DNA of 64,000 nt, taken from a virus (taxonomy: Duplodnaviria > Heunggongvirae > Uroviricota > Caudoviricetes). Position 1 is the stretch's first letter. Each line of letters begins with the position of its first letter. Under the pieces are notes generated by a model. The model worked only from the letters and a program-made list of their open reading frames with translations, made no database searches and was not told where the DNA came from. Below are positions 2,257 through 39,260 of this stretch, one piece after another. The translations under genes and the position numbers were made by a program. Location of the stretch: the IMG/VR virus record IMGVR_UViG_2675903278_000002; one strand, given 5' to 3'.

Positions 2257-2362
2257 CATATGGTGGGGGATATCCCCACCTTCTCTTTGATTTGTAAGCC
2301 TTGTTTAAACACATAAGATAACAACTTGTTTAAACGCACCAAAAAAGAAAAAGGAAAAACAC

Positions 2363-3505
2363 ATGTCATATTCAACGTTCCGTTTGGGTGCTAATGATGC
2401 AACCAAAGAGCCTATGTTCCTCGGACAATCTGTCAACGTGGCACGTTACGATCAGCAAAAATACCGTGATTTTGAAAAGTTGATTGAACGTCAATTGTCT
2501 TTCTTCTGGCGGCCGGAAGAAGTTGATATTTCGAGCGATCGTATCGACTTCAACACGAAGCTGCGGGACCACGAACGTCACATTTTTCTGAGCAATCTCC
2601 GTTATCAAACGTTACTCGATTCAGTTCAGGGACGTAGTCCAAATGCAACGCTGCTGCCGCTTATCTCTATTCCTGAACTGGAAACGTGGGTTGAAACGTG
2701 GTCTTTCTCTGAGACTATCCATAGCCGCAGCTACACCCACATTATTCGTGGCATGGTGGACGATCCGAGCATTGTTTTTGACGGTATTGTTACGGATGAA
2801 GAAATCATCAACCGAGCGATCAGTATCTCTGCTGAATATGACAGGCTTTATGGGATGACCTGCGAGCGCCAGTCGTTAGGTGAGAAGGAATTTGAGCGTC
2901 TGTACGTAAATGAATATGGCTGGGAGCCATACCCTTTGCACCGTCAGCTTTTCCGCACGTTGGTGTCCATTAATGCGCTTGAGGCGATCCGTTTCTATGT
3001 AAGTTTTGCATGTACGTTTGCCTTTGGCGAACGGAAGTTGCTTGAGGGTAACACCAAAATTATGCGCTTTATTGCCCGTGATGAAGCTCTGCATTGCGAA
3101 GGAACTGAACGCATGATCCGCTTCATGCGTACCGGTCGCGAAGGTTTATTGTGGAAAGAGATTGCTGCTGATGAAGAAAACGTCATTTACGACACCATGA
3201 AATCAGTCGCCGAACAAGAAATGAACTGGGCAGACTATCTCTTCAAAGACGGTTCGATGATTGGTTTAAACGCGGATATTCTCAAAACCTATGTAAAATA
3301 CCGCACCAATCTGGCTATGAATCGTCTTGGCCTGAAGGCTTTATTTCCAGAGGTTACCACCGATCCGCTGGTCTGGATGAACAAGTGGTTGTTAACCGAC
3401 ACACTGCAAATTGCACCACAAGAGGCAGAGCAAAGCACATATCTGGTAGGTCAGATCGATTCTACCGTGGATAAGGCTTCTCTAAGCCAGTTTGCAGACC
3501 TGTAA
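2363..3505 (+). CDS. nrdB: ribonucleoside-diphosphate reductase beta subunit (NrdB)
   Basis: 380 aa; [48 protein letters not shown] as in class Ia NrdB; directly downstream of nrdA; RBS-like GGAAAAACACATG. Confidence 0.96.
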
Positions 3506-3582
3506 ACCGATACAAAGCATTATGTGGCCTGGCAACGCTGGGCCACAATGGATCACAAGAATTAAGAAGGAACAAAACTAGC

Positions 3583-4452
3583 ATGAACTTTACCAAACTG
3601 ACTGACCACCTGAAACTTGCCACCGATCGACTCATTGGATTTAAGCCAGAACCATATGAGTTGCATGAAGGCCATGGTGTAGCCACTGAAAGTATTTACA
3701 AGATGGTCGATCAGTTTCATGAACTCTTCCAGCATCCGAGACGCGTTATGCCGACACCAGAGCTGCTTCGTCTCCGTGCAAGCCTGATTCATGAAGAAGC
3801 TGTAGTGGAAGGTATTCCAGCCGCAATGAATGGGGATATTGAGCAACTGCTGGATGCAATGGCCGACTTTTTATACGTTGGTGTTGGTACGATGGTCGCC
3901 ATCAAAGGTGGTATTTCTACCGGCATGACCTATTACACGCAGGAACAGAGCATTGATCGCTTTATGCAGACAATTTTTGTGCCCGGTAACACTGTTTTCG
4001 ATGATATGGCAATGCCATTTCAGGAAGCTCGTGAGGCGTCATGTATGCTCGAAGAGCTGGCAGATAAACTTGAGAACAAGACTGTTAAGGATTCTGAGCT
4101 GATTCAGGAACTGCGCCGTGTCATGAACAAAATCTATGTGGCGTGCATGATGACCTATCGACTGGCTGATTTCCTCGGTATCAATGTAGTCGAGCTGGTT
4201 GGCGAAATTCATCGGTCTAACATGACAAAATTATGGCCTGCTGATGTTGAGGAACGTCGCCAGGCTGTGGCCAACTGCAAATACGACTCTTCAGATCTGG
4301 GATTCCGCCATGCTGATGGCACCGATAAGATGATCGGTTTTCGAATTTCCGATGGAAAGATTCTGAAGTCTCCAACCTATAGTGATGTCGATTTATCCTC
4401 CTTTGTTGAGCAAGCTAAAGCCTCAGCAATGTACGGAATGATCAAAAAATAA
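3583..4452 (+). CDS. hypothetical protein, possible MazG-like nucleotide pyrophosphohydrolase
   Basis: 289 aa ORF with RBS (AAGGAAC) in the nucleotide-metabolism module; acidic helical segments with E-x-x-E/D spacing; function is a guess. Confidence 0.7.
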   Translation: MNFTKLTDHLKLATDRLIGFKPEPYELHEGHGVATESIYKMVDQFHELFQHPRRVMPTPELLRLRASLIHEEAVVEGIPAAMNGDIEQLLDAMADFLYVGVGTMVAIKGGISTGMTYYTQEQSIDRFMQTIFVPGNTVFDDMAMPFQEAREASCMLEELADKLENKTVKDSELIQELRRVMNKIYVACMMTYRLADFLGINVVELVGEIHRSNMTKLWPADVEERRQAVANCKYDSSDLGFRHADGTDKMIGFRISDGKILKSPTYSDVDLSSFVEQAKASAMYGMIKK

Positions 4453-5728: not shown

Positions 5729-6142
5729 ATGGCAAGAGGTATGTATGTCTTATGCGAAATTGAAGGTGTGCTGGCAAATGCCAGCCATCGTAAATCAGTA
5801 TCTGACGCGGATGCAGGCCAGCTCATTGCCGGTGATGAACTCATTTTCCCCACCAGCCGTATGTTGCGTGGTTTTGCTCGCTCAGGGGCTGAAGTGGTGC
5901 TTATCAGTAGCCGCTCTGAAACTCTTGAAGCGCCAACTAAACGATGGCTGAAAGATTTTGGCGTTGATTATGACTGGCTTCATCTCGTACCGAATGGCAC
6001 CAGTTATGAGAAGCATATTAAGCGCACATTAGCGGAGCATAAAGGCGATCTGCTTATCGCTGCGCTGGTGCACGATCCTCGACTCCGTGCCGCTTTAGCC
6101 GACTCTCACCATCGACCGGTCATCTATGAGGTGAGCAAATGA
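5729..6142 (+). CDS. hypothetical protein
   Basis: ATG one codon after thyA stop, in frame with track ORF 5681..6142; overlaps DHFR start by 4 nt (translational coupling). Confidence 0.55.
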   Translation: MARGMYVLCEIEGVLANASHRKSVSDADAGQLIAGDELIFPTSRMLRGFARSGAEVVLISSRSETLEAPTKRWLKDFGVDYDWLHLVPNGTSYEKHIKRTLAEHKGDLLIAALVHDPRLRAALADSHHRPVIYEVSK

Positions 6143-6615
6143 AGATGATCGCTGCTGTTGGCCGTAACTATGAGATCGGCATAGCGAATGAACTCCCCTG
6201 GCGTTGTTCTACCGATCTGAAGCTATTTAAGAGACTCACCAAAAACGCCACTGTCGTTATGGGGCGTAAAACGATGGAAAGTCTCAAACGCCCTCTTCCA
6301 GAGCGTCATAACCTCGTTTTGACGCGCTCTCATGGCTTTGTACCAAATGGATTCTACCCTGCTGGTGTGGATGATGTGTTGCGATTACCAGAGCCTGTGT
6401 GGGTGATTGGCGGGGAACAAATTTACTCGCTATTCATGCCGCATGTTGAAGAGATTTGGCTCTCCCACATCGGCGTTGATGTGCCAAACGCCGATGCATT
6501 CTTCCCGGCAAGCATGATGCGTAATTTAGGCTTTGTGCCTGTTGAAACAGCTTATACCCAACGAGCCAGCGAGGAAGAGCCTGGCTTTTCGCAGATCGTA
6601 TACAGAAGGTCGTAA
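6139..6615 (+). CDS. folA: dihydrofolate reductase
   Basis: 158 aa; MIAAVGRNYEIGIANELPW and VMGRKTMESL are typical type I DHFR; coupled to flanking genes. Confidence 0.92.
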   Translation: MKMIAAVGRNYEIGIANELPWRCSTDLKLFKRLTKNATVVMGRKTMESLKRPLPERHNLVLTRSHGFVPNGFYPAGVDDVLRLPEPVWVIGGEQIYSLFMPHVEEIWLSHIGVDVPNADAFFPASMMRNLGFVPVETAYTQRASEEEPGFSQIVYRRS

Positions 6616-19879: not shown

Positions 19880-20146
19880 ATGTTGCATAGAGTTTTATGG
19901 AAAAGCGTTATTGTCGGCGCGATACTGGCTATATCTGGGTGTGCAATGGTGCAATACAACGACGGTGAAAAGGTAAGCATACAGTCAGATGGTTGGTATG
20001 GCCTGGATAGCCTGCAAAAAACCGCAGATAAAGCCTGTCAGCAATATGGGAAGTCTAAAGCAGTATATCAGCATAGCGCGAACGCTAACCCTAATCTTGC
20101 GCCCGGTTCGGGTGTTCAGAATACCATCTGGAAATGTGAGCCTTAA
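19880..20146 (+). CDS. putative lipoprotein
   Basis: ~88 aa; signal peptide with lipobox LAISGC; origin (phage or host) unresolved. Confidence 0.65.
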
Positions 20147-20148
20147 AT

Positions 20149-20400
20149 ATGAGCGACTGGAATATTGCAGCTAAAAGTCAGGAAGAACGGGATAAGGTTA
20201 ACGTTGATCTGGCTGCCAGCGGTGTGGCGTACAAAGAGCGATTGAACATACCTGTCATAGCTGAACAGGTAGCCCGCGAGCAACCAGAGAACCTGCGCAC
20301 CTATTTCATGGAACGGTTACGGCACTACCGGCAGTTAAGCCTCCAGTTGCCAAAAGGAAGCCATCCGGTGTATCAGAACGAGGATGCACCAAGAAAATAA
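20149..20400 (+). CDS. hypothetical protein
   Basis: 83 aa; ATG 2 nt after lipoprotein stop. Confidence 0.55.
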
Positions 20401-20776
20401 CGGCAAGATGGGGAAGACATTAAACATGCTTAACTATCACGACAACACGCGTTCTATGCAGACAATCCGCACCAATACAGCGGTGGTCGATAGCTTTCCT
20501 GTACATACTCAAGGCCGTGAAGATACCGTGGAAGTGCGACGCATGTTGTGTCGCCGGTCACCAGGCCACCAGCACTTCATCGTAACGTTTAAAAGCGATG
20601 TAGAGCGCGCCGAGAAAATCTCTAACTCCACATCTCTGGTTAGTCCGTTGGCGGAGGTTATTGTGCGCAACAATAAGGCGCGCTTTGTCCTTGAGGAGCA
20701 TCATTCTGATTTTAATGAAAAAATTGAGTCAAGCATTTTGCAATATATGAATGGCAAGTTCACGCCACCAATGTGA
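20384..20776 (+). CDS. hypothetical protein
   Basis: 130 aa ORF overlapping previous gene end; start uncertain (internal ATGs at ~20408, ~20426). Confidence 0.5.
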
Positions 20777-20837
20777 TTAGCCCCCAGCGTGGCGCGCCTG
20801 CAAACCCCGCTTTCACAAACTATGCCTTTTCAATGTA

Positions 20838-20857
20838 TACTGTATGAATAAACAGTA
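20838..20857 (+). promoter_or_regulatory. LexA (SOS) box
   Basis: TACTGTATGAATAAACAGTA: CTGT-N8-ACAG in AT-rich context, ~20 nt upstream of the UmuD'-like gene. Confidence 0.75.
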
Positions 20858-20875
20858 TCATTGAGGTAAAACGCT

Positions 20876-21265
20876 ATGGGCTTCCCTTCTCCTGCGGCGG
20901 ATTATGCAGAGAGCCGTATTTCTCTTGATCAGCAACTAATCAGACATCCTTCAGCGACCTACTTCATGCGGGCAGCTGATAGTCATCATCGTGAGGGAAT
21001 ATTACAGGGTGCATTGCTGGTGGTCGATTCCTCACTTACCCCGGTTGATGGTTCTCTGCTTGTATGCGCTCTGGATGGGGAATATCGCGTAAAAAGATAC
21101 CGGAAGTACCCACGTCAGCATCTGGAGGATTTAAGAACCGGTAAGAAGGAAGCATTGCCAAAGGATGACGATGGATGCACGGGCAGCAATGCCGTGTTTG
21201 GTGTGATCACTCACATTATCAACGACGCAAGAAGTGGCGAGTTTGATGATTGTCCCGTGATGTAG
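20876..21265 (+). CDS. UmuD'-like protein (S24 peptidase fold, lacks LexA-like N-terminal arm)
   Basis: 129 aa; begins GFPSPAADYAE...HPSATYF, i.e. where processed UmuD' begins; C-terminal ~35-aa extension. Confidence 0.8.
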   Translation: MGFPSPAADYAESRISLDQQLIRHPSATYFMRAADSHHREGILQGALLVVDSSLTPVDGSLLVCALDGEYRVKRYRKYPRQHLEDLRTGKKEALPKDDDGCTGSNAVFGVITHIINDARSGEFDDCPVM

Positions 21266-21277
21266 GAGAACTGATTA

Positions 21278-21301
21278 GGCGGTGCATTGCACCGCCTTTT
21301 T
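21278..21301 (+). terminator. rho-independent terminator
   Basis: GGCGGTGCA/TGCACCGCC hairpin followed by TTTTT, between the UmuD'-like gene and the convergent apbC stop. Confidence 0.7.
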
Positions 21302-21302
21302 A

Positions 21303-22403
21303 TCACACTGCGCGGAATGCGATTTCGCCAGGTATTACTTCACCTTGCCAATACATTTGGGCAGCAACGCGATCTGCGAGGTCACGATAAATAGCCGTAA
21401 ATTCGCTATCTGGACGACTAATAACGGTTGGTGTTCCGTTATCCAGATCTTCACGAAGAGAGATATGAAGTGGCATTTGGCCTAACAACTGCGTGTTGTA
21501 TTTCTCGGCCAGTTTCTGTGCGCCACCGGTGCCAAAAATTGGCTCGTGATGACCGCAGTTACTGCAAATATGCACACTCATGTTTTCGACGATACCCAGT
21601 ACCGGCACTTCGACTTTTTCGAACATCACAATGCCTTTCTTCGCATCGATCAGCGCGATGTCTTGCGGCGTAGTTACCACAACCGCACCAGTTACAGGAA
21701 TGTTCTGCGCCAGCGTCAACTGAATATCACCAGTGCCCGGCGGCATATCGAGAACGAGATAGTCCAGATCAGGCCATAGAGTTTCCTGCAACATCTGCAT
21801 CAGCGCCTTGCTGGCCATCGGTCCACGCCACACCATTGCATTGTCGTCGGTGACCAGATAACCAATAGAGTTGGTTGCCAGGCCATGAGACATGATAGGT
21901 GCCATGTGAGTACCGTCCGGTGAGGTTGGACGTTGGTTTTCCGCGCCCAGCATGGTTGGAATTGATGGACCATAGATATCGGCATCCAAAATACCAACTT
22001 TCGCACCTTCAGCAGCCAACGCCAGTGCCAGATTTACCGCCGTGGAGGATTTACCTACGCCGCCCTTGCCTGAGCTGACGGCGATAATGTTCTTAACGCC
22101 ATTAATGCCTGGTTGGTTTTTGACGCGCTTAAGCGTGGCAATGTTGTACGACAGCTTCCAGTCAATAGCCTTTGCGCCAGTGATACGGAGCAGATCACCA
22201 CTACATTGCTCTTTCAGGTCTTCAAAAGGCTTATTCCACACGAAAGGCATGATTAGTTCGACATGCAGTGTGTCATCCATCAACGCAACATGGTGTAACG
22301 CTTTAAGCGTAGTCAGGTTGTGTTTCAGGGTTGGGTGCTGAAAATTAGCCAGCGTACCGGCTACCATTGCTCTCAGGGCATCCGGCGATTTGGACTCGCT
22401 CAT
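21303..22403 (-). CDS. apbC: iron-sulfur cluster carrier ATPase ApbC/Mrp (host-type)
   Basis: 366 aa; deviant Walker A AVSSGKGGVGKSST, CSNCGHH motif; from recall, matches enterobacterial ApbC/Mrp closely along its length (not alignment-checked, unlike metG); divergent from metG as in E. coli. Confidence 0.95.
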   Translation of the reverse strand: MSESKSPDALRAMVAGTLANFQHPTLKHNLTTLKALHHVALMDDTLHVELIMPFVWNKPFEDLKEQCSGDLLRITGAKAIDWKLSYNIATLKRVKNQPGINGVKNIIAVSSGKGGVGKSSTAVNLALALAAEGAKVGILDADIYGPSIPTMLGAENQRPTSPDGTHMAPIMSHGLATNSIGYLVTDDNAMVWRGPMASKALMQMLQETLWPDLDYLVLDMPPGTGDIQLTLAQNIPVTGAVVVTTPQDIALIDAKKGIVMFEKVEVPVLGIVENMSVHICSNCGHHEPIFGTGGAQKLAEKYNTQLLGQMPLHISLREDLDNGTPTVISRPDSEFTAIYRDLADRVAAQMYWQGEVIPGEIAFRAV

Positions 22404-22560
22404 CCCGTCTCCTTTATTTTAATTTGCGCAATTGTCGCCTTGTAGTGTACTCCAGCTACGACATTTAATCATTTATGAGAAATGCTGTTATCACATGGCA
22501 GACATAAGGCCATTTTGTTACTATCAAGCCCCTTTTCACTACAAAGAAGTAATGCCTACT

Positions 22561-24594
22561 ATGACCCAAGTCGCGAAGAAAATTCTGGTGACGTGCGCGC
22601 TGCCGTACGCTAACGGCTCAATCCACCTCGGCCATATGCTGGAGCACATCCAGGCTGATGTCTGGGTTCGTTACCAGCGAATGCGCGGCCACGAGGTTAA
22701 TTTCATCTGTGCCGACGATGCCCACGGTACGCCGATCATGCTGAAAGCACAGCAGCTTGGTATCACACCGGAGCAGATGATTGGCGAAATGAGTCAGGAA
22801 CACCAGACTGATTTCGCAGGCTTTAACATCAGCTATGACAACTATCACTCGACGCACAGCGAAGAGAACCGTCAGTTGTCTGAGCTTATCTATACTCGCC
22901 TGAAAGAGAACGGTTTTATTAAAAACCGCACTATCTCTCAGTTGTACGACCCGGAAAAAGGCATGTTCCTGCCGGATCGTTTTGTAAAAGGCACCTGCCC
23001 GAAATGTAAAGCGCCAGATCAATACGGCGATAACTGTGAAGTCTGCGGCGCAACATATAGCCCGACTGAATTGATCGAGCCGAAATCGGTGGTTTCTGGC
23101 GCTACCCCGGTAATGCGTGATTCCGAACACTTCTTCTTTGATCTGCCTTCTTTCAGCGAAATGTTGCAGGCATGGACCCGCAGCGGCGCGTTGCAGGAGC
23201 AGGTGGCGAACAAAATGCAGGAATGGTTTGAATCCGGCCTGCAACAGTGGGATATCTCCCGAGATGCGCCTTACTTCGGTTTTGAAATTCCGAACGCGCC
23301 GGGCAAATATTTCTACGTCTGGCTGGACGCGCCGATTGGCTACATGGGTTCCTTCAAGAATCTGTGCGACAAGCGCGGCGATACCACCAGCTTCGATGAA
23401 TACTGGAAGAAAGACTCCACCGCCGAGCTGTACCACTTCATCGGTAAAGATATTGTTTACTTCCACAGCCTGTTCTGGCCTGCCATGCTGGAAGGCAGCA
23501 ACTTCCGCAAGCCGACCAACCTGTTTGTTCACGGCTATGTGACGGTGAACGGCGCGAAGATGTCCAAGTCTCGCGGCACCTTTATTAAAGCCAGCACCTG
23601 GCTGAATCATTTTGACGCCGACAGCCTGCGTTACTACTACACTGCGAAACTCTCTTCGCGCATTGATGATATCGATCTCAACCTGGAGGATTTCGTTCAG
23701 CGCGTGAATGCCGATATCGTGAACAAAGTGGTTAACCTGGCCTCCCGTAATGCAGGCTTTATCAACAAGCGTTTTGACGGCGTGCTGGCAAGCGAACTGG
23801 CTGACCCGCAACTGTACAAAACCTTTACTGATGCCGCTGAAGTGATTGGCGAAGCATGGGAAAGCCGCGAATTTGGTAAAGCTATCCGTGAAATCATGGC
23901 ATTGGCTGACCTGGCTAACCGCTATGTCGATGAACAGGCTCCGTGGGTGGTGGCGAAGCAGGAAGGACGCGATGCCGATCTGCAGGCGATTTGCTCTATG
24001 GGCATTAACCTGTTCCGCGTGCTGATGACGTACCTGAAGCCGGTACTGCCGAAACTGACTGAACGTGCAGAAGCATTCCTGAATACAGAACTGACCTGGG
24101 ATGGTATCCAGCAACCGCTGCTGGGCCATAAAGTAAATCCGTTCAAGGCACTGTATAACCGCATCGATATGAAGCAGGTTGAAGCACTGGTGGAAGCATC
24201 CAAAGAAGAAGTGAAAGCCACAGCCGCACCGGTAACTGGCCCACTGGCTGACGACCCGATTCAGGAAACTATCACCTTTGACGACTTCGCCAAAGTTGAC
24301 CTGCGCGTGGCGCTGATTGAAAACGCAGAGTTTGTAGAAGGTTCTGACAAACTGCTTCGCCTGACGCTGGATCTCGGTGGTGAAAAGCGTAATGTCTTCT
24401 CAGGCATCCGTTCCGCTTATCCAGATCCACAGGCACTGATTGGTCGTCACACCATTATGGTGGCTAACCTGGCACCACGTAAAATGCGCTTCGGTATCTC
24501 TGAAGGCATGGTGATGGCTGCTGGCCCCGGCGGGAAAGATATCTTCCTGTTAAGCCCGGATGCTGGTGCTAAACCTGGCCACCAGGTTAAGTAA
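22561..24594 (+). CDS. metG: methionyl-tRNA synthetase (host-type)
   Basis: Starts [31 protein letters not shown]..., KMSKS present, ends ...GAKPGHQVK; essentially the E. coli MetG sequence; track ORF 22432 begins upstream in frame, ATG 22561 is the conserved start. Confidence 0.96.
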
Positions 24595-24612
24595 TTAAAC
24601 AACCTCTCTTCG

Positions 24613-24641
24613 CAATGCCCGGCAACACGCCGGGCATTTTC
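24613..24641 (+). terminator. rho-independent terminator (metG)
   Basis: GCCCGGC-AACAC-GCCGGGC hairpin followed by ATTTT right after metG stop. Confidence 0.85.
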
Positions 24642-24677
24642 ATATAGACACAATCCCTTCTGATTTACACAGTACCT

Positions 24678-24692
24678 AAAACAATTTGTTTT
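24678..24692 (+). promoter_or_regulatory. class-A palindromic motif (first of a tandem pair)
   Basis: AAAACAATTTGTTTT followed by CTGCC, same as motif at ~29301. Confidence 0.6.
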
Positions 24693-24727
24693 CTGCCTTT
24701 TGTTGATGGAGATAATAAACCACATAA

Positions 24728-24743
24728 GAAAACAACTTGTTTT
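24728..24743 (+). promoter_or_regulatory. class-A palindromic motif
   Basis: GAAAACAACTTGTTTT immediately upstream of RBS GGAGTGG and ATG 24756. Confidence 0.6.
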
Positions 24744-24755
24744 GGAGTGGTTGAA

Positions 24756-25055
24756 ATGTTGAACATTACCCAAGCCTACCAGGTGGCATTGATCAGCTCA
24801 TCTCATACATCAGAGGAAGATGCTCGCCGATTCATGATCGCAAGCAATGAGCTGGATTGGGTTTCACAAATTGAGTACGGTTGCATTGTCCACGCCGGGT
24901 TACAGGACGATGACTGGAAAGATGAGTTGCGTCGATATGGTATATCCGAGGGCGCGATTGCGAACATTCAGAAAGTACTTGATGTAGGCTTTGACTCTGT
25001 ACATTTTGATTGTGGTGCACCGGTCGTTGAAGGGCTAGAGTGCTGGCAATGGTAA
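24756..25055 (+). CDS. hypothetical small protein
   Basis: ~99 aa; ATG with GGAG upstream, in frame with track ORF 24747 (GTG). Confidence 0.6.
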   Translation: MLNITQAYQVALISSSHTSEEDARRFMIASNELDWVSQIEYGCIVHAGLQDDDWKDELRRYGISEGAIANIQKVLDVGFDSVHFDCGAPVVEGLECWQW

Positions 25056-25999: not shown

Positions 26000-26109
26000 C
26001 GGTTGCAACTTATTGATAATGGCGGTCACAATTTGATTCTTTTCTATAAGAACCCGTTGATCGCCACTACTCCCCTCCCATACCAGCAATCACATCATTA
26101 AATATCAAT

Positions 26110-26960
26110 AGGTTATGGTTGTTTATACAAATAAGAAAACAACTAAATAACAGATCAACGAAACGTCAACGCTTTCACCCGATTTGGTCTAAAAAATTGA
26201 CGTTTTCACACATCACTTCTTATACCCGTAACTCTACGCAGCAGACATCGCCACAGCGTCCAATTTTCACCACAGACGACCCAACACACTACCAACAAAA
26301 ACACACGCTCAAAATCGCTCCCGTTGCGTTACACAACCATATAAACAACTTATTTTCAGGCATAACAAAACAACTAAATAACACACATGCCATTTCCAAA
26401 AACAACCAACCTCTTTATGGCAGGCTACCGAAAAGACCCACCTCTTCTCCCCAGGCTACCGGACAACCAACCTAACTTTCACAGGCAATCCGAAAACATT
26501 CATACGCGCGATACCCACGACACGCCATTACCCAAACAGCGAAGAAACACCAGAATCACTGAACCCCCAACGAAGCCTGTAACCGCAAGGCTTCTCTCAA
26601 TCCCAAAAGACACGAAACAGAACAATCACGGGAAACGCCATTACCCAACACACGAATAACTACAAAAGCCCTTCACGCACTCCAGACAAACAACTCAAAC
26701 ACAATAACGAAAGGAATCGCCCACCTGCCATTACTCCATACACGGAGAAGAACAATCACCAAAACGACGAGAACACCCCATAGAAGAACCACCGCAAAAC
26801 GAACGAAACCACATACACCGACAGAGAGAACAACACACCCAATTCACCAACAGAATTAGTCGCCGTATAGAACGTTCTGGAAGGAGTGAGTGTTAACGTC
26901 CATAGAGAGGTTGAGACAGATAAAACACGAATAAAACACAACATGTATAGCGAAGAAGCC
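26110..26960 (+). ncRNA. candidate non-coding transcript, A+C-rich and G-poor on the + strand
   Basis: ~0.85 kb strongly depleted in G and T; starts after a class-A-like half motif (AAGAAAACAACTAAATAACA, repeated ~240 nt in); ends at hairpin+T terminator ~26983-27007; ORFs here are low-complexity. Confidence 0.35.
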
Positions 26961-31921: not shown

Positions 31922-32125
31922 TTAAATAGAATTTTGAAGTTTTCCGATTAATGCGCTTAAACGTAAGTATTCACGTTTGCGCTTGCAATCTCGCTTGCTG
32001 TTGAGCAAATCAGAAAACGTAAAATTTAATTGGTCGCGTTGCGCGATCAAATCATCGATTAATTCCAGTTTATAAGCGCGATACTTTGCGCGATATTCCG
32101 CGCGGATCTTGTCATAGCTGACCAT
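31922..32125 (-). CDS. hypothetical small basic protein
   Basis: ~67 aa from internal Met (MVSYDKIRAEY...) of track ORF 31922..32170, with AAGGAG RBS. Confidence 0.5.
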   Translation of the reverse strand: MVSYDKIRAEYRAKYRAYKLELIDDLIAQRDQLNFTFSDLLNSKRDCKRKREYLRLSALIGKLQNSI

Positions 32126-32138
32126 TTTTAAAGCTCCT

Positions 32139-32162
32139 TTAAAGCGCCCACTATGGGCGCTT
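32139..32162 (-). terminator. intercistronic hairpin (attenuator-like)
   Basis: AAGCGCCCACTATGGGCGCTT between the 216-aa gene stop and the next RBS. Confidence 0.5.
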
Positions 32163-32173
32163 GATTCCATTAA

Positions 32174-32824
32174 TTACGCTTTGAAAGCATCAGCTAAATA
32201 ATTGTAGAAATCATTTTTAATGAAGCGATATTGCTGAGTACCAGCTTTCGCGCTCCCAGCTCCTTTGACTTTTTCAACAAGTCCAAGACGTTCGCAAAGA
32301 TTGATCAACTGGTTGGCTTGAGTATAGCCAGCGTCCAATTTAATTTCGCACGCTTTTTTCGCTTCATTCATTAAATCGAAAACAGCGCCATTGGTGAACG
32401 TGTCGATCTCGTCGTTAATCATATCGATTAATGCGAATACACGAGATCCGGACATATCAGCGACGGAATAAACACACTTTCCAGCTTTAATGGATTTAAC
32501 CAGATAAACCAGTTTTTCCAGAGAATAACTATTAGTCATTGCATCACGGAAAAATACTTCTGGCGCTTGTTTGCTTGCTTTGATCGCATAGTAGAAAACA
32601 GAGCACAATTTTTCGTCTTCTACAGCGTTTACAACGTTGTTGATGAAGTAAGCAAGTTTAGTGGTTGCAGCTTGCATATTTGCTTTGTCTGCTTTGGTGT
32701 GCGTGCCATTTTTATAATGTTCGTTATATGTTTGAGTTGCCAGATCTGCTTTTTCGCGCAGTTCATCGGATACAATGGAAGCAGCTTCAATGATGGATTT
32801 TTTAGAAATGATAATGTTAGCCAT
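32174..32824 (-). CDS. hypothetical protein (216 aa)
   Basis: Long minus-strand ORF, AT-richer by eye, AT-rich promoter-like region upstream (32825-33070); no recognisable domain. Confidence 0.7.
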   Translation of the reverse strand: MANIIISKKSIIEAASIVSDELREKADLATQTYNEHYKNGTHTKADKANMQAATTKLAYFINNVVNAVEDEKLCSVFYYAIKASKQAPEVFFRDAMTNSYSLEKLVYLVKSIKAGKCVYSVADMSGSRVFALIDMINDEIDTFTNGAVFDLMNEAKKACEIKLDAGYTQANQLINLCERLGLVEKVKGAGSAKAGTQQYRFIKNDFYNYLADAFKA

Positions 32825-33069
32825 GATAATTTTTCCTTATGTAAATTTAAAATTTATTGTCGTTAGCGTCTTCGCTTTCGACGAGTTCAATTATCGATAT
32901 GCGAAAAAAGATTGCAAGTGTTTTTTTTAAATTTTTTGCAGGGATGAAAGTCCTAGAAATAAAAGCGAGATCGTCGAAGGTGTTCCCTAAATAAATAATT
33001 GATTGCGGCTTTAGACCTTATATATATTTAGGTTATTTGATTTGTAGATATAAAGAAGTGATGTGAAAA

Positions 33070-33098
33070 ATAATAACCGGACTTAGCCGGTTATTAAC
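33070..33098. terminator. bidirectional hairpin terminator
   Basis: AATAACCGG-ACTTAG-CCGGTTATT between the two minus-strand cassettes. Confidence 0.6.
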
Positions 33099-33107
33099 CT
33101 TATAGAT

Positions 33108-33416
33108 TTATTGAACAGACTCTACAGCCTTACGATTGGTGTCAAATAGCGCATCAACGAACTGTGCCGATGACTCGCTAGATTCGCAATCCAACATTGC
33201 CCGTTCTTCATTTGCCACTTTCTTACACAGTTCCACATTCTCACCTATCGCTTTTCCTGCTTTTACGGCTGCCGAAAATTGATACATGCAAACTGATACA
33301 TTCTGAGACGTTGAGCACACGTCATTCATCAGCGACTGAATGACAGGCTTATAGTCCATTGCATTTGCCGCAACTGAGCAAAGTAAAAATAATGGTGGTA
33401 ACAATATCGATTTCAT
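33108..33416 (-). CDS. putative secreted/periplasmic small protein
   Basis: 102 aa; N-terminal signal peptide MKSILLPPLFLLCSVAANA; several Cys. Confidence 0.6.
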   Translation of the reverse strand: MKSILLPPLFLLCSVAANAMDYKPVIQSLMNDVCSTSQNVSVCMYQFSAAVKAGKAIGENVELCKKVANEERAMLDCESSESSAQFVDALFDTNRKAVESVQ

Positions 33417-33419
33417 AAC

Positions 33420-33944
33420 TCAAAAAGGCAAAATTCGTTCAACCCAATCGAACAAAACAACTATTTTTCTACCGTTCTCGACACGTAGTGTAACCTGACA
33501 AGCATCTGCGCCTGCTGACACCCCCTCAATTTCACGGCCATCCGCCATGTACACCCTTATAGATTTGTTTGCTTTGTAGGCTTGGTTGCAAATTGCAAAA
33601 AAATCGCGGCGTGATGGCCGATTATCGACATAATCAGGGTGAACTGTTAGTCGACCTTTGAAATCGTGAGCGATACTGTCAACCACACCTGATTCAATTG
33701 TACTAATGCGTTCAAGTGGGAGCCTTATACGATTTTCTTTGTCAAAAGGGGCTGGGCAAAGGTCAACTTTGTTACGAGATGGCATGAGGCCATAAACGTA
33801 CATGCAAAACGCCTGGCCATCTTCGAGAGTGACCCTTACAGGAATTTGTTCTCTGCGCCAGAACATCAGTAGTTTTTCAACGTTAGTGTAATCTCGCGGC
33901 CAGAGTTCAGCTTGGATACCGTAGGTAATATCTTTGGTTGTCAT
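33420..33944 (-). CDS. hypothetical protein
   Basis: ~174 aa from internal Met (MTTKDITYG...) of track ORF 33420..34022; ATG 1 nt after the upstream lipoprotein gene stop. Confidence 0.55.
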   Translation of the reverse strand: MTTKDITYGIQAELWPRDYTNVEKLLMFWRREQIPVRVTLEDGQAFCMYVYGLMPSRNKVDLCPAPFDKENRIRLPLERISTIESGVVDSIAHDFKGRLTVHPDYVDNRPSRRDFFAICNQAYKANKSIRVYMADGREIEGVSAGADACQVTLRVENGRKIVVLFDWVERILPF

Positions 33945-33948
33945 ATCA

Positions 33949-34371
33949 TCACAGAGTTGTTGGCAGAATGTCGATGTCACCAGAATTGCTGGTAAACACC
34001 CTGAACGCTTTTGTGTCTCCATTCTTCAGAGTCGTTTCTCGCTCTTGACGAGCGGGGTTTAGAGCACATAAACCTGCACCTTCAAGAGATGCACCCACAA
34101 TTAATTCTCCGGCATTTAAATGGAAAGTCGCTTTTTCGCCTGTAGCCAGTTTTGCGACAGTTTCGCCGTTGATGAAAATGGAAGCATCACATCCAGCTCC
34201 TACAAAACCTGTGTCTCTCATTACCACCAACGTAGCTGGCGCTGCGCTTTGATACTTGAACACTTTGGCCTGCGGTGCTGGTTTGGCGTCATGGATTGAT
34301 ATTGGGTGTGATTGGCACGCGGCAAGCATCAACACTGGTAACGTTAGTAGAGGGAGAAGCGAGTATTTCAT
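33949..34371 (-). CDS. putative lipoprotein (candidate superinfection-exclusion protein)
   Basis: ~140 aa from internal Met (MKYSLLPLLTLPVLMLAACQ...); lipobox LAAC; function inferred by analogy. Confidence 0.6.
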   Translation of the reverse strand: MKYSLLPLLTLPVLMLAACQSHPISIHDAKPAPQAKVFKYQSAAPATLVVMRDTGFVGAGCDASIFINGETVAKLATGEKATFHLNAGELIVGASLEGAGLCALNPARQERETTLKNGDTKAFRVFTSNSGDIDILPTTL

Positions 34372-34439
34372 GATAGTTTTAGAACAGAAAGTGAACAGTA
34401 TGGGAGACTTCATCTTTGTCTCCCTAATTGATAGCGTGA

Positions 34440-34718
34440 TTATTTTAATCTGCTTAATAGCGTTTCGAGATCTTCCTTTGTCATATTAGAGTTCTCATAG
34501 ATACGCATGATTTTCTCACGAGTCTTAGCGGAAGCCCCGACAGAAGATATAACCTTGTCAAAGTCGGCCATTGTCAATTGTTCCAGAATGGTATTTATGA
34601 CTTCAGCCTTAGACATTTTGATATTTTTTTCTTTTAGTTTCACTTGAAACTTTCCAAGTTTGTCATTGGCCTTATCAGACAATGCTACCTGACAGTAAGT
34701 TGTTTTCTTTTCACTCAT
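34440..34718 (-). CDS. hypothetical protein
   Basis: 92 aa ORF immediately downstream of the helicase gene on the minus strand. Confidence 0.55.
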   Translation of the reverse strand: MSEKKTTYCQVALSDKANDKLGKFQVKLKEKNIKMSKAEVINTILEQLTMADFDKVISSVGASAKTREKIMRIYENSNMTKEDLETLLSRLK

Positions 34719-37043: not shown

Positions 37044-37711
37044 TGACCAAAAAGTTTGAAATCGTATATCGCGACCCGGCAGATCTTATTCCCTATGAGA
37101 TGAATGCCAAAAAGCATGATGAACAGCAGATCAGAGATTTGGCCGCAGCCATTAAAAAGCGCGGATTTGACCAGCCAATTACGGTCGATAAGAACGACGT
37201 AATTATTACTGGCCACGGCCGCCGTGAGGCTGCAATTTTTGCTGGACTTGAGCGCGTACCGGTTATTGTTCGTGATGATCTGAGTGATGACGAGGTTCGT
37301 GCGAAGCGCCTTGAAGATAACCGACTTGCCAGCATTGATTACGATGCAATTAAGCTACAGAAAGAGCTTGAGTCGCTTGTTCTGGACGATATTGAGGTTT
37401 TCGGCTTTGAAGAGCGTGAGTTGAATGTTCTCGTTGGCAGTATGACAGAAGAAATGGACACCGACTCGCTAGTTATCGATCTTGGCGAAGAAACTAAACG
37501 ACAGAAGGATGAACACACCGAGATCAGTCGTGAAGTTGCAGCGGAAGAAGTACGTGTTGTCGACGTATTGGGCTTTAAAACGCTCCCTGCTGGCTCTGCC
37601 ATTGTTGTTGGTGATTTGCTTGCCCATATGGAAGAAATGACGGGAGAAAGCGGGGTAGACGCATTTGTGGCATATGCGGAGAAGATCTCTTCCGGGGAGA
37701 TGGCTGCATGA
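37043..37711 (+). CDS. ParB-like nuclease domain protein (second paralogue)
   Basis: ~222 aa from ATG overlapping previous stop; ParB-like ITGHGRREAA; acidic C-terminal half. Confidence 0.8.
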   Translation: MTKKFEIVYRDPADLIPYEMNAKKHDEQQIRDLAAAIKKRGFDQPITVDKNDVIITGHGRREAAIFAGLERVPVIVRDDLSDDEVRAKRLEDNRLASIDYDAIKLQKELESLVLDDIEVFGFEERELNVLVGSMTEEMDTDSLVIDLGEETKRQKDEHTEISREVAAEEVRVVDVLGFKTLPAGSAIVVGDLLAHMEEMTGESGVDAFVAYAEKISSGEMAA

Positions 37712-38373
37712 GCAAATACATCATCAACGTATCGTTTCAGACACGCGTAAATAAAACCACGCGCACGTTGGAAATCGCTGAGTCGTTCGGGCTTGGCCTG
37801 GACGAAAAAGAGTGGACGCTTTACGACAATCTGGAGCTGGAAGTGAAGCAGGGCGATGTGGTGTACATCACCGGCCAATCCGGTTCCGGCAAATCCGTTG
37901 TGCTGCGCGAGTTGCAACGACAGATGAAGGATGAAGGGCTGTCTGTAGCCTCCATCGATGATTTTACCTTCGATAATGAGGTTAACGTCATCGATCAGTT
38001 GGGCAAAACGACCAGTGATGCGCTTGGGTTGTTATCTATGGCTGGTCTGAACGATGCATATCTGTTTGTTCGCAAGCCTTCTGAAATGTCAGACGGCCAG
38101 AAATATCGTCTCAAGATTGCCAAACTGATTGAGTCAGGCGCTAAAGTATGGGCTGCTGACGAGTTCGGCGCTGTTCTCGACCGTGTAACCGCTCAGGTTG
38201 TGGCGTCTAACCTCCAGCGTGCCGCTCGAAAGGTTGGTGCGACGGTAATGGTGGCGACGACTCACGAAGACCTGAAGAACGCGCTGCGCCCTGATATGCA
38301 GATCACCAAGCACTACAAAGAACGCGTGAAGGTGGAATATCACAATGGTAGTCATGATGAGGTCCATTCATGA
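37708..38373 (+). CDS. ABC-type ATPase
   Basis: 221 aa; Walker A ITGQSGSGKS, signature-like MSDGQKYRLKIA, Walker B VWAADEF; coupled to ParB-like genes. Confidence 0.8.
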   Translation: MSKYIINVSFQTRVNKTTRTLEIAESFGLGLDEKEWTLYDNLELEVKQGDVVYITGQSGSGKSVVLRELQRQMKDEGLSVASIDDFTFDNEVNVIDQLGKTTSDALGLLSMAGLNDAYLFVRKPSEMSDGQKYRLKIAKLIESGAKVWAADEFGAVLDRVTAQVVASNLQRAARKVGATVMVATTHEDLKNALRPDMQITKHYKERVKVEYHNGSHDEVHS

Positions 38374-39260
38374 CGGACATCATCATTAAACGCTACCGCC
38401 CTGAAGAGTTTCCGCGTCATCTGGACTTTCTGGAGCGAATGACTGTTACAAAGGGAACTGTAGAGGACTGGCACGCTCTTAAGTCGCTTCACTACAAAAC
38501 AGACGGCAAACCTTTCGCGCCAACTTACTATCGCTGCGAACTTGATGACCGTCTGGTGGGCGTCGTGGTTATGGCTTACCCGAAACTACTGTTGGCACCT
38601 CGCCACCGCATGTTTCCTAAGTTGAAACCAACCACTAATACCACCGTGGCTAACCAGTACTGGGGTCGGTACGTGAATAACAACTTTGCGGTGATCAGTC
38701 GCTCAGTTGTGGATACTCAGTATCGTGGCGTAGGCGTCTCTTATAGAATGATTAACCTGGTTAGCAGGATGCATGACCGGCCAATCATTGAGATCCAGTC
38801 CTCGATGAGCAAATACAATCCCTTCGCCATGAAAGCAGGGTTTAAGTTCATCCGCCCTGAGCGACCGAAGAGCTATGAAAGTGCACTGCGTGTGTTCCAG
38901 CGCCATTTCCGCTCCGACCCGGGTGATAACGAGGCGATCGTCAAAGAGTTGTTCGCTATGAGCGAGTCTCGTCGTCGCCGTGCGCTGCGCGATTTGGTGG
39001 CGGACTACCATAAGAACAGTTCCCTGGCAAAAGCTGGGCGGAATCGTGGCACGACGATTCAGGACATTGCCGACAGTCTGGTGGACGAGGCCAGCATTGT
39101 GAAGCTGCTCAAGGACATTCACAACCTGAGCTTTACGTCTCCGTTGTATGGTGTGTACCGAAACCCTGACTTTGGCCGTCGACTGCCTGACACGCTGCCA
39201 CTGCTGGCATTCGACAAACAACCTTTGGATAAACCGTTAGAAATTGCTTTACCGGCATAA
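38370..39260 (+). CDS. hypothetical protein, possibly acetyltransferase-like
   Basis: 296 aa; overlaps previous stop; QYRGVGVSYRMINLV loosely resembles a GNAT acyl-CoA site; low confidence on function. Confidence 0.65.
   Translation: MTDIIIKRYRPEEFPRHLDFLERMTVTKGTVEDWHALKSLHYKTDGKPFAPTYYRCELDDRLVGVVVMAYPKLLLAPRHRMFPKLKPTTNTTVANQYWGRYVNNNFAVISRSVVDTQYRGVGVSYRMINLVSRMHDRPIIEIQSSMSKYNPFAMKAGFKFIRPERPKSYESALRVFQRHFRSDPGDNEAIVKELFAMSESRRRRALRDLVADYHKNSSLAKAGRNRGTTIQDIADSLVDEASIVKLLKDIHNLSFTSPLYGVYRNPDFGRRLPDTLPLLAFDKQPLDKPLEIALPA

Follow-up and report, generated by a model that had tools for sequence, protein, structure and literature searches.

Layout of the apbC-metG block

Within the window, by which we mean the whole 64-kb stretch of viral DNA analyzed, two intact genes of bacterial type stand back to back between phage genes. 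The features of the locus, in window order, are:

20149-20400, plus strand: homologue of DNA polymerase III theta, of the phage P1 "Hot" type (NCBIfam NF008207, 104.7 bits; Pfam DNA_pol3_theta)
20876-21265, plus strand: HumD, a UmuD'-like S24 peptidase of P1 type (HumD equivalog model, 219.7 bits, cut-off 120)
21277-21297, plus strand: predicted humD terminator hairpin, GC-rich and followed by TTTTT (terminator scan)
21303-22403, minus strand: apbC (mrp), 366 aa, intact
22404-22513, no strand assigned: Salmonella/Citrobacter-like part of the divergent promoter region, next to apbC
22514-22560, plus strand: Escherichia-like putative promoter and 5' leader next to metG, the promoter role being suggested by alignment
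22561-24594, plus strand: metG, 677 aa, full length and intact
24614-24638, plus strand: predicted metG terminator hairpin with a T-run after it (fold energy -19.1 kcal/mol, z = -5.35)
24674-24745, plus strand: early promoter/operator region, where the phage backbone resumes (SSU5 alignment, upstream of SSU5_104)
24747-25055, plus strand: DUF5983-family phage gene (Pfam PF19419)

The original prediction of a divergent apbC/metG pair flanked by phage genes on both sides is borne out, with both products scoring far over the NCBIfam equivalog cut-offs. ApbC reaches 759.3 bits with NF008669 (cut-off 348), covering residues 2-366, and holds the deviant Walker A motif GKGGVGKS and the cluster-binding CSNCG (CXXC); by these family features, it is predicted to be the Fe-S cluster carrier ATPase ApbC/Mrp. 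MetG reaches 1019.8 bits with NF001100 (cut-off 587) over residues 4-677, matches the Pfam domains tRNA-synt_1g, Anticodon_3, and tRNA_bind, and contains HLGH (HIGH), KMSKS, the four Zn-knuckle cysteines (CPKC...CEVC), and a C-terminal tRNA-binding domain, all of which predict a methionine-tRNA ligase of the long E. coli type. A 503-aa antisense ORF within metG (22618-24129) and a 43-codon upstream extension of metG (TTG at 22432) were dismissed as mechanical ORFs. Scans found no Rfam match in 20-28.5 kb, no tRNA anywhere in the window, and no tandem repeat within the gene-less stretch at 26-27 kb.

The cassette consists of exactly apbC, metG, and their divergent promoter region. In alignments to K-12/E. 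coli, homology to the chromosome is confined to 21307-24595 and ends exactly at both stop codons, and the chromosomal neighbors yehE and DUF4132 are missing beside the block; we found no host-identical DNA running on into native chromosomal neighbors, and identity to E. coli is ~90%. The hairpin at 21277-21297 (fold energy -18.6 kcal/mol, z = -5.1) lies in the 37 nt that separate humD from the apbC stop codon and resembles neither P1 nor the chromosome, while the hairpin at 24614-24638 has no homology to the E. coli metG terminator in the alignment to K-12. The cassette lies between the humD terminator and a metG terminator of its own, just upstream of the phage early promoter/operator.

The spacer between the two genes is composite. 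Its apbC-proximal part (22404-22513) is 61-65% identical to Salmonella/Citrobacter and 38% to E. coli/E. albertii, and shares with Salmonella/Citrobacter a ~25-nt segment that is missing from Escherichia. The metG-proximal part (22514-22560) is 89-94% identical to K-12/E. albertii and 73% to Salmonella/Citrobacter, and holds a TGnTACTAT extended -10-like element and a ribosome-binding site; the breakpoint falls at ~22514. The Salmonella and Klebsiella comparators came from records mis-typed as "plasmid", and that of E. albertii from the chromosome matches listed, which contained no further Escherichia species and no Salmonella. Nothing in the spacer passed a simple consensus promoter scan. The idea that the pair had kept its native spacer and terminator survives for the 47 nt beside metG and the ribosome-binding region of apbC, but not for the remaining spacer or for the hairpin at 24614-24638.

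The flanks belong to one SSU5-type genome, probably a phage-plasmid

The genes at 19880-21265, left between host and phage by the original prediction, are settled as phage by a theta/Hot homologue and HumD with 88-94% DNA identity to phages P1/P7/D6. Positions 19888-20402 are 89.7% identical to a P1-like plasmid, with P1 hot among the matches; humD DNA is 93.6% identical to a P1-like plasmid, the homology stopping at 21264. humD is the final phage gene ahead of the block. Relatives that matched the humD flank and were considered as an "empty site" turned out to be P1-type plasmids, not SSU5-type, which shows hot-humD to be a P1-like module.

As had been noticed earlier, a promoter-like palindrome is shared by both flanks: the window has 8 copies of AAAACAANTTGTTTT against 0.06 expected, on both sides of the block and never inside it. 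Two of the copies (24678-24692 and 24729-24743) lie in the conserved 24674-24745 region upstream of the DUF5983 gene. Of the six other copies compared, five have the unit humD-apbC-metG-DUF5983 (20828-25054) in common with the window; in the sixth, from E. marmotae, the similarity starts only at 21294.

The nearest records of the window are E. coli plasmids. Plasmid p2 of E. coli E03 (circular, 110 kb) is collinear with, and ~99.3% identical to, the whole 64-kb window and carries nrdAB, thyA, dfrA51, rnhA, theta, parB, terminase, portal, capsid, tape-measure, and tail genes. The annotation of this 99.3%-identical, collinear record places the siphovirus genes for structure and packaging (terminase, portal, major capsid, tape measure, tail tip) at 41311-64000 of the window and ParB-family genes at 37310-38658. 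SSU5 aligns with positions 11-37 kb in ten collinear segments of 67-90% identity. The order runs from early genes through partition to structural genes, and the two sides of the block make up a single, uninterrupted genome of SSU5 type. The near-identical records, 105-113 kb in length, are circular plasmids typed IncFIB or rep_cluster_488; circularity and replicon type are read from these relatives, as the window is a 64-kb part of the element. Kindred elements are pECOH89, pLF82 (which is phage Cyrano), and the pWPMR2 type, all ~110 kb, circular, and extrachromosomal.

With this genome in view, we see next to no chance that two related prophages sit on either side of a chromosomal apbC-metG locus. 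The same operator-like palindromes on both sides would fit such a pair of insertions, but in SSU5 these palindromes are spread over one early region, the near-identical records are circles of ~110 kb, the flanks are continuous with each other, yehE and DUF4132 are absent, and chromosome homology ends at the stop codons. The premise that a prophage should have host DNA on its flanks does not apply: going by its circular relatives, the element is in all likelihood an extrachromosomal plasmid, and there is consequently no chromosome for the block to sit "inside".

Distribution of the block

The block is present in 208 PLSDB records (188 at 95% identity or more) and at 224 plasmid sites in complete E. 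coli genomes; 4 phage records, including Cyrano, CMS-2020a, and PhiR41_1, carry it as well. In pSCU-306-2, among other plasmids, it is 100% identical, and in S. sonnei phage-plasmids 98.5-99.7%. At least one member, NZ_KP792123.1, keeps only the last 177 nt.

This recurrence bears on whether a chromosomal apbC-metG contig was misjoined between two phage contigs. Beyond the unexpected gene content, nothing points to such a chimeric assembly, and the same arrangement and junctions recur in ~200 PLSDB plasmids, the 224 plasmid sites, and the 4 phage records, which amount to hundreds of mostly complete circular plasmids, assembled independently in different laboratories and from different hosts, besides the phages. 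Since the block is ~90% identical to any E. coli chromosome, it is not a misplaced piece of the same isolate's genome either, and misassembly is scarcely credible. Nothing favors an engineered construct; carriers come as natural isolates, their sources being humans, pigs, poultry, wild birds, a dolphin, and river water.

We find the terminase-portal backbone in 759 plasmids; at 95% or more, the number is 185, which matches the number with the block, a correspondence judged from counts rather than from a per-record join. At the level of megablast, the block was not seen in 571 backbone relatives of Klebsiella, Enterobacter, Yersinia, and Salmonella type. Two further mrp-metG occurrences were considered as independent captures and rejected: that of Acinetobacter phage MD-2021a lies in an ordinary bacterial chromosomal context, and the record of Pseudomonas phage Y5 is UNVERIFIED and unannotated.

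Taken together, we put at about 90% the probability that the window is part of an Escherichia/Shigella SSU5-supergroup phage-plasmid, of which apbC-metG is a fixed auxiliary, "moron"-like cassette in the Escherichia-associated clade. Features bearing on that label are a candidate divergent promoter region of its own, a predicted terminator at either end, and the lack of the phage operator inside.

Age, selection, and mosaic origin

Near-identity to host chromosomes had been anticipated, and the DNA does not show it: against 5,400 E. coli chromosomes, the whole block is ~90% identical. The description of the metG protein as essentially identical to E. coli MetG holds (98.8% identity to that of K-12, the 8 substitutions being conservative) but does not extend to the gene (94.1% nt, dS 0.29, dN/dS 0.02), its dS being about the distance between E. 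coli and E. albertii. For apbC, the values against K-12 are 82% nt, 94% aa, dS 1.59, and dN/dS 0.02. Its GC3 is 0.52 against 0.62 in K-12, lowered toward phage-plasmid composition, which argues against a recent capture. No chromosomal donor of apbC closer than ~82% was found among the matches listed and a limited chromosome set, and apbC is the old part of the block.

Among the phage-plasmid copies, nucleotide diversity is 1-6%. The ApbC protein is the same in 6 of 7 copies, with dN/dS among the 7 at 0.008 for apbC and 0.011 for metG, values of strong purifying selection on both. The cassette is old and spans the clade. Identity of metG between phage-plasmids (93.3-99%) equals the distance from phage-plasmid to chromosome, a PHI-type permutation test on metG gives p <= 0.001, and the metG of pECOH89 includes a ~1.1-kb tract 97-100% identical to K-12 that the window allele lacks. 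The block itself is mosaic, with apbC and most of the spacer of Salmonella/Citrobacter type and an Escherichia-type metG bearing recombination tracts.

The proposal of a very recent capture of host DNA, therefore, stands as to capture and falls as to its date. Capture by this phage itself, for example, through aberrant recombination or transduction, would fit the 98.8% identity of MetG to the K-12 protein and the listing of metG among chromosome-to-plasmid "recent transfer" families in PMC8297927. We consider it very improbable, given a dS of 0.29 for metG and ~1.6 for apbC against E. coli, the drifted GC3 of apbC, the spread of the block through the entire Escherichia clade of the family, where copies differ by up to 6% of nucleotides, and the failure of chromosomal flanking DNA to be carried along; the "recent" signal of metG is better explained by recombination tracts.

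On enterobacterial chromosomes, apbC and metG are native divergent neighbors. We propose a single capture of the pair, from an enterobacterial chromosome like that of Salmonella/Citrobacter. After the element had settled in Escherichia, the metG part, which begins ~47 nt before the gene and reaches close to its stop codon, would have been repeatedly overwritten by chromosomal metG, the probable route being homologous recombination with the host copy. By then, apbC may have kept its old sequence because it was already too divergent to recombine. This model is drawn from 7 phage-plasmid copies and a limited chromosome set; formally, an unsampled early-branching Escherichia-like donor, together with faster synonymous change in apbC, could also account for the pattern. 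We give roughly even odds to the cassette being a chimera still exchanging sequence, in which the apbC/spacer part is an old relic and metG is continually rewritten by Escherichia/Shigella host copies. If so, the phage-plasmid would act both as a shuttle for alleles of an essential gene and as a reservoir of their diversity, and the "highly variable" metG reported for pWPMR2 would be explained.

Expression and possible roles

In published RNA-seq of the LF82/Cyrano lysogen, apbC stands 9-fold over prophage background and metG near background (raw values: humD 148, apbC 92, metG 16), the weak transcription of metG being that of a single transcriptome. Cyrano forms virions (PMC9928086). A link of phage-plasmid metG to tolerance and persistence comes from Tam et al. 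(medRxiv 10.1101/2024.10.27.24316207), as relayed in PMC12452169, according to which its expression in Shigella sonnei yields tolerant/persister sub-populations favoring the evolution of resistance. Such sub-populations would aid host survival and, hence, retention of the phage-plasmid. Drawing on this literature, we take each gene to be putatively transcribed from a sigma-70-type promoter of its own while the element is a plasmid, and at plasmid copy number, so that the cell would gain an additional ApbC and an additional, variant MetRS. Of the two, the near-invariant, lysogen-expressed ApbC may be the more tightly selected cargo.

An alternative that we regard as unlikely is that the cassette is kept mainly for lytic growth, with extra MetRS serving translation initiation and elongation and ApbC serving Fe-S supply. 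The element does hold other host-like genes (nrdA, nrdB, thyA, dfrA51, rnhA, theta), a relative has der, another translation gene, adjoining apbC, metG is weakly expressed in the lysogen, and purifying selection on both genes is strong. Against this, the cassette has a host-type putative promoter sequence and no phage operator palindromes, apbC is expressed in the uninduced lysogen, the published expression of metG in the plasmid state (relayed in PMC12452169) is tied to a host phenotype, and SSU5 and other clades manage without the cassette, which is, accordingly, dispensable for the family.

It is quite improbable that the cassette serves as an essential-gene back-up, whereby loss of or damage to chromosomal metG would make the host unable to lose the phage-plasmid. 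In PMC8297927, one isolate, E. coli 2014C-3307, is reported with metG only on its plasmid, an indirect hint that such a copy may aminoacylate in vivo, but every other carrier retains the chromosomal copy, and acquisition of an essential gene is argued to destabilize plasmid inheritance. All 5,426 of 5,426 complete genomes have a match, at a median of one place per genome.

Comparison with known systems

Phage-plasmid metG is already known: metG on Escherichia plasmids of ~106 kb was catalogued in 2021 (PMC8297927), and its phage-plasmid form has since been tied experimentally to antimicrobial tolerance and persistence in epidemic S. sonnei (relayed in PMC12452169). As a discovery, the cassette matters little. 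What is added here, and may serve studies of the evolution of this cargo, comprises: (i) the exact junctions; (ii) the unequal ages of the two genes; (iii) the breakpoint at ~22514; and (iv) the near-invariance of ApbC and its lysogenic expression. In practice, the cassette marks a clinically relevant phage-plasmid lineage, and a second, variable metG at plasmid copy number can confound read mapping and SNP calls at the chromosomal locus of this essential gene.

Among its closest counterparts are pECOH89, pLF82 (Cyrano), and PhiR41_1, in which the humD-apbC-metG-DUF5983 unit is collinear and the block 96-98.7% identical; they differ from the window in metG alleles that are 1-5.4% apart and mosaic and in the genes upstream of humD. 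The pWPMR2-type elements of S. sonnei and E. coli belong to the same family with the same metG cargo, pWPMR2 itself being likened by description. Phage-plasmids like it, clade K in bioRxiv 10.1101/2025.09.12.675607, are reported from S. sonnei and from E. coli of CC131, CC23, and CC73, and the MetG of an S. sonnei phage-plasmid is WP_001755492.1, the same accession as in the window's near-identical relative. SSU5 and pHCM2-type phage-plasmids share the backbone synteny, the operator-like palindrome, and the promoter region at 24674 but lack apbC-metG, SSU5 having unrelated small genes between its DUF4942 and DUF1380 genes.

The portion of Wein et al. 2021 used here (PMC8297927) lists metG on 19 Escherichia plasmids, with a "Mixed" phylogeny and no evidence of relaxed selection, in agreement with the mosaicism and low dN/dS found in our analysis; the plasmids with metG, nrdA, and nrdB have a median of 106 kb, and many are non-mobile. 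In that portion, the carriers are not treated as phage-plasmids, and neither apbC nor a chimeric origin is covered.

A more distant likeness is to the mupA/mupB IleRS genes, target-replacement aminoacyl-tRNA synthetases on plasmids, which likewise place a second synthetase copy on a mobile element. MupA/MupB are highly divergent and inhibitor-insensitive, whereas the MetRS described here is 98.8% identical to that of the host and scores 33 bits with the MupA/MupB models (cut-off 1900); no sign of inhibitor resistance is seen.

Nature of the element

Because the entire window is ~99.3% identical to, and collinear with, the circular 109,854-bp plasmid p2 of E. coli strain E03 and shares ten collinear segments of 67-90% identity with Salmonella phage SSU5, we assign it to an extrachromosomal SSU5-supergroup phage-plasmid of the pECOH89/pLF82 (phage Cyrano) type. 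The block itself, comprising apbC (mrp), metG and the spacer between them, is 100% identical to several ~110-kb E. coli plasmids. The premise that a prophage should have host DNA on its flanks does not apply to an extrachromosomal element.

Gene order across the window, from the annotation of p2 (strain E03)
Group 1: nrdA, nrdB, thyA, dfrA51, adenine methylase, rnhA, DUF4942 protein
Group 2: Ea22-like gene, theta, HumD
Group 3: apbC, metG
Group 4: DUF5983, small hypothetical genes
Group 5: repressor region, DEAD-box helicase, ParB genes
Group 6: terminase, portal, major capsid, tape measure, tail genes

Within the nrdAB-thyA nucleotide-metabolism module lies dfrA51 (6131-6607), a phage-plasmid dihydrofolate reductase for which trimethoprim resistance upon expression has been reported (PMC12217456). 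The sole part diverging strongly from the closest relatives, 32100-34500 (78-91% identity or unaligned), surrounds a gene annotated 'repressor of phase-1 flagellin' and possibly reflects an immunity-region swap.

The block and its borders

Features of the block and its borders
21277-21297, hairpin with T-run, after humD (terminator scan, fold energy)
21303-22403, minus strand, apbC, 366-aa ORF
22561-24594, plus strand, metG, 677 aa from the real start, the ATG at 22561
24614-24638, a different hairpin, after metG (terminator scan, fold energy)

Both proteins score far above the cut-offs of their NCBIfam equivalog models (ApbC, 759 bits against 348; MetG, 1020 against 587) and show the expected Pfam domains, among them the tRNA-binding domain at the C terminus of long-form MetRS. 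The translations contain the catalytic and metal-binding motifs: HLGH, KMSKS and four Zn-knuckle cysteines in MetG, and GKGGVGKS and CSNC in ApbC. On these profile matches, domains and motifs, we therefore regard apbC and metG as real, intact genes in their native divergent arrangement, as originally predicted.

Profile and Pfam searches place a theta homologue of the P1 Hot type and HumD within 19880-21265, whose genes had been left unassigned between host and phage; they belong to the phage. The hot and humD genes (19888-21264) are 88-94% identical in DNA to phages P1, P7 and D6 and P1-like plasmids, and therefore form a module that SSU5-type phage-plasmids share with those of the P1 type. 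This sharing does not extend to the DNA separating the two genes (20402-20829), and P1-type homology stops at the humD stop codon.

Downstream of the block, the phage backbone resumes at ~24674 with a putative promoter/operator region conserved with SSU5, in which, at 24674-24745, two AAAACAANTTGTTTT copies bracket a GAGATAAT element. This palindrome occurs eight times in the window against 0.06 expected.

Sites of the 15-nt palindrome AAAACAANTTGTTTT, mostly just upstream of early genes
12540, 13269, 24678, 24729, 28398, 29301, 30536, 39678

SSU5 likewise has eight copies in 21 kb, typically upstream of early genes, and a phage-plasmid regulator probably uses the palindrome as its operator. 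The statement that phage regions on both sides of the block share these palindromes is correct, and a scan of the whole window found none inside the block; this pattern argues for a single phage regulon broken up by an autonomous cassette, and not for two separate elements.

Further downstream, 26100-26900 is a gene-free stretch of ~0.8 kb whose plus strand is strongly A+C-rich and G/T-poor (GC skew -0.31, AT skew +0.35). It has recurring GCCATTACCC motifs, loose ~30-nt direct repeats at 26400-26491 and weak conservation in SSU5; Rfam and tandem-repeat searches found nothing there.

Occurrence

The block is present on 208 PLSDB plasmids (188 at >=95% identity) from E. coli, Shigella, E. albertii and E. 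marmotae, at 224 places on plasmids in complete E. coli genomes, and in four phage records (Cyrano, two CMS-2020a records and PhiR41_1); virion production by Cyrano has been demonstrated (PMC9928086). A conserved unit, humD-apbC-metG-DUF5983 (20828-25054), recurs with identical junctions in five other copies. Across PLSDB, 759 plasmids match the terminase-portal segment (Klebsiella 307, Escherichia 205, Enterobacter 91, Yersinia 62, Salmonella 49), of which 185 reach >=95% identity, about the same as the 188 block carriers at that level. SSU5 has unrelated small genes and no cassette at this position, and at least one member keeps merely the last 177 nt of the block. Judged from counts and not from a per-record join, the cassette appears specific to, and nearly fixed in, the Escherichia-associated clade.

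On the E. marmotae plasmid NZ_CP146383.1, der (2271-3743), an essential ribosome-biogenesis GTPase gene, adjoins apbC in humD's place, making it a second translation gene of host type to have been captured at this hotspot. The mrp-metG pair also occurs in two records filed as phage, Acinetobacter phage MD-2021a and UNVERIFIED Pseudomonas phage Y5 (CAKLQF020000011.1 and OQ572407.1). We reject these as independent captures; they look like mislabelled bacterial DNA, the pair in the Acinetobacter record being surrounded by the ordinary chromosomal genes dcd, pfs, rhtC and emrB.

An old capture with a mosaic structure

Homology of E. coli chromosomes to the window is limited to 21307-24595 and averages only ~90%, so that comparison of 21303-24641 with host chromosomes gives no near-identity. 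In K-12, similarity begins at the apbC stop codon and finishes at that of metG; yehE and a DUF4132 pseudogene, which adjoin the pair on the chromosome, are absent beside the block in this alignment, and the hairpins at both ends are unlike chromosomal sequences.

Divergence of metG and apbC
Nucleotide identity, window vs K-12: metG 94.1%, apbC 82%
Amino-acid identity, window vs K-12: metG 98.8%, apbC 94.5%
dS, window vs K-12: metG 0.29, apbC 1.59
dS, K-12 vs E. albertii: metG 0.34, apbC 0.62
dS, K-12 vs Citrobacter: apbC ~1.2
dN/dS, window vs K-12: metG ~0.02, apbC ~0.02

Each origin first proposed for the block fails on these data. A chimeric assembly is excluded by the same block and junctions in many independent plasmid and phage records, and an engineered construct by record distribution and divergence. 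Very recent capture is incompatible with the dS values against K-12 and the missing chromosomal flanks; insertion of two elements either side of a chromosomal locus, with the absence of yehE and DUF4132 and with a single extrachromosomal element. MetG is essentially identical to that of E. coli as protein, but not as DNA. What records, junctions and divergence leave is an old capture that the element has come to carry stably.

The two genes have diverged unequally: the apbC/metG dS ratio is 5.5 between phage-plasmid and K-12 and 1.5-1.8 between chromosomes, and GC3 is lowered in apbC (0.52 vs 0.62 in K-12) and unchanged in metG (0.61 vs 0.625). Comparing seven phage-plasmid copies with the K-12 and E. 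albertii chromosomes, we found the apbC copies tightly grouped (95.3-99.6% among themselves, ~82% to chromosomes), with ApbC identical in six of the seven and dN/dS of 0.008. The metG copies (93.3-99%) are as divergent from one another as from chromosomes (93-96%); about half of all pairs of informative sites are incompatible under the four-gamete test, a PHI-type permutation test is significant at p <= 0.001, and pECOH89 metG has a ~1.1-kb tract 97-100% identical to K-12.

The spacer is likewise composite. Its 22404-22513 portion is 61-65% identical to Salmonella/Citrobacter, with which it has in common a ~25-nt segment missing in Escherichia. The block was said to have its own host intergenic region, which holds for the last 47 nt 5' of metG (89-94% to Escherichia, 73% to Salmonella/Citrobacter) but not for 22404-22513, only 38% identical to Escherichia; the host terminator was not borne out, the 24614-24638 hairpin differing from chromosomal sequence. 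The simplest reading, we infer, is a single old capture of the pair from a Salmonella/Citrobacter-like donor, after which host chromosomal metG would have overwritten the cassette metG repeatedly by recombination, with a breakpoint near 22514. Less simply, the donor may have been Escherichia-like and so far unsampled, together with accelerated apbC change.

Relation to known metG phage-plasmids

Sequence comparison establishes the cassette as insulated, intact, strongly conserved, old phage-plasmid cargo, with a host-type promoter sequence and without phage operators. The finding is real, yet explained and published before: metG carriage by Escherichia plasmids and phage-plasmids is already known. 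Data for the Cyrano lysogen list apbC, under the annotation 'septum site-determining protein', as a moron at 9-fold above background, with raw values in the supplementary table of 148 for humD, 92 for apbC and 16 for metG (PMC9928086). Wein et al. 2021 (PMC8297927) describe metG together with nrdA and nrdB on Escherichia plasmids, 19 of them for metG, a median plasmid size of 106 kb, a 'Mixed' plasmid/chromosome phylogeny, no sign of relaxed selection, and one isolate with solely plasmid-borne metG. The metG phage-plasmid pWPMR2 has been assigned to the SSU5 supergroup, with similar elements occurring in S. sonnei as well as E. coli CC131, CC23 and CC73 (2025 preprint 10.1101/2025.09.12.675607); the MetG accession of the window's near-identical relative is also that on a S. 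sonnei phage-plasmid. As summarised in PMC12452169, Tam et al. (medRxiv 10.1101/2024.10.27.24316207) associate multidrug-resistant S. sonnei with a multi-copy, highly variable phage-plasmid metG whose expression gives a sub-population predisposed to acquire cephalosporin resistance; on this published account, a second MetRS expressed from the plasmid state shifts host physiology towards antibiotic tolerance.
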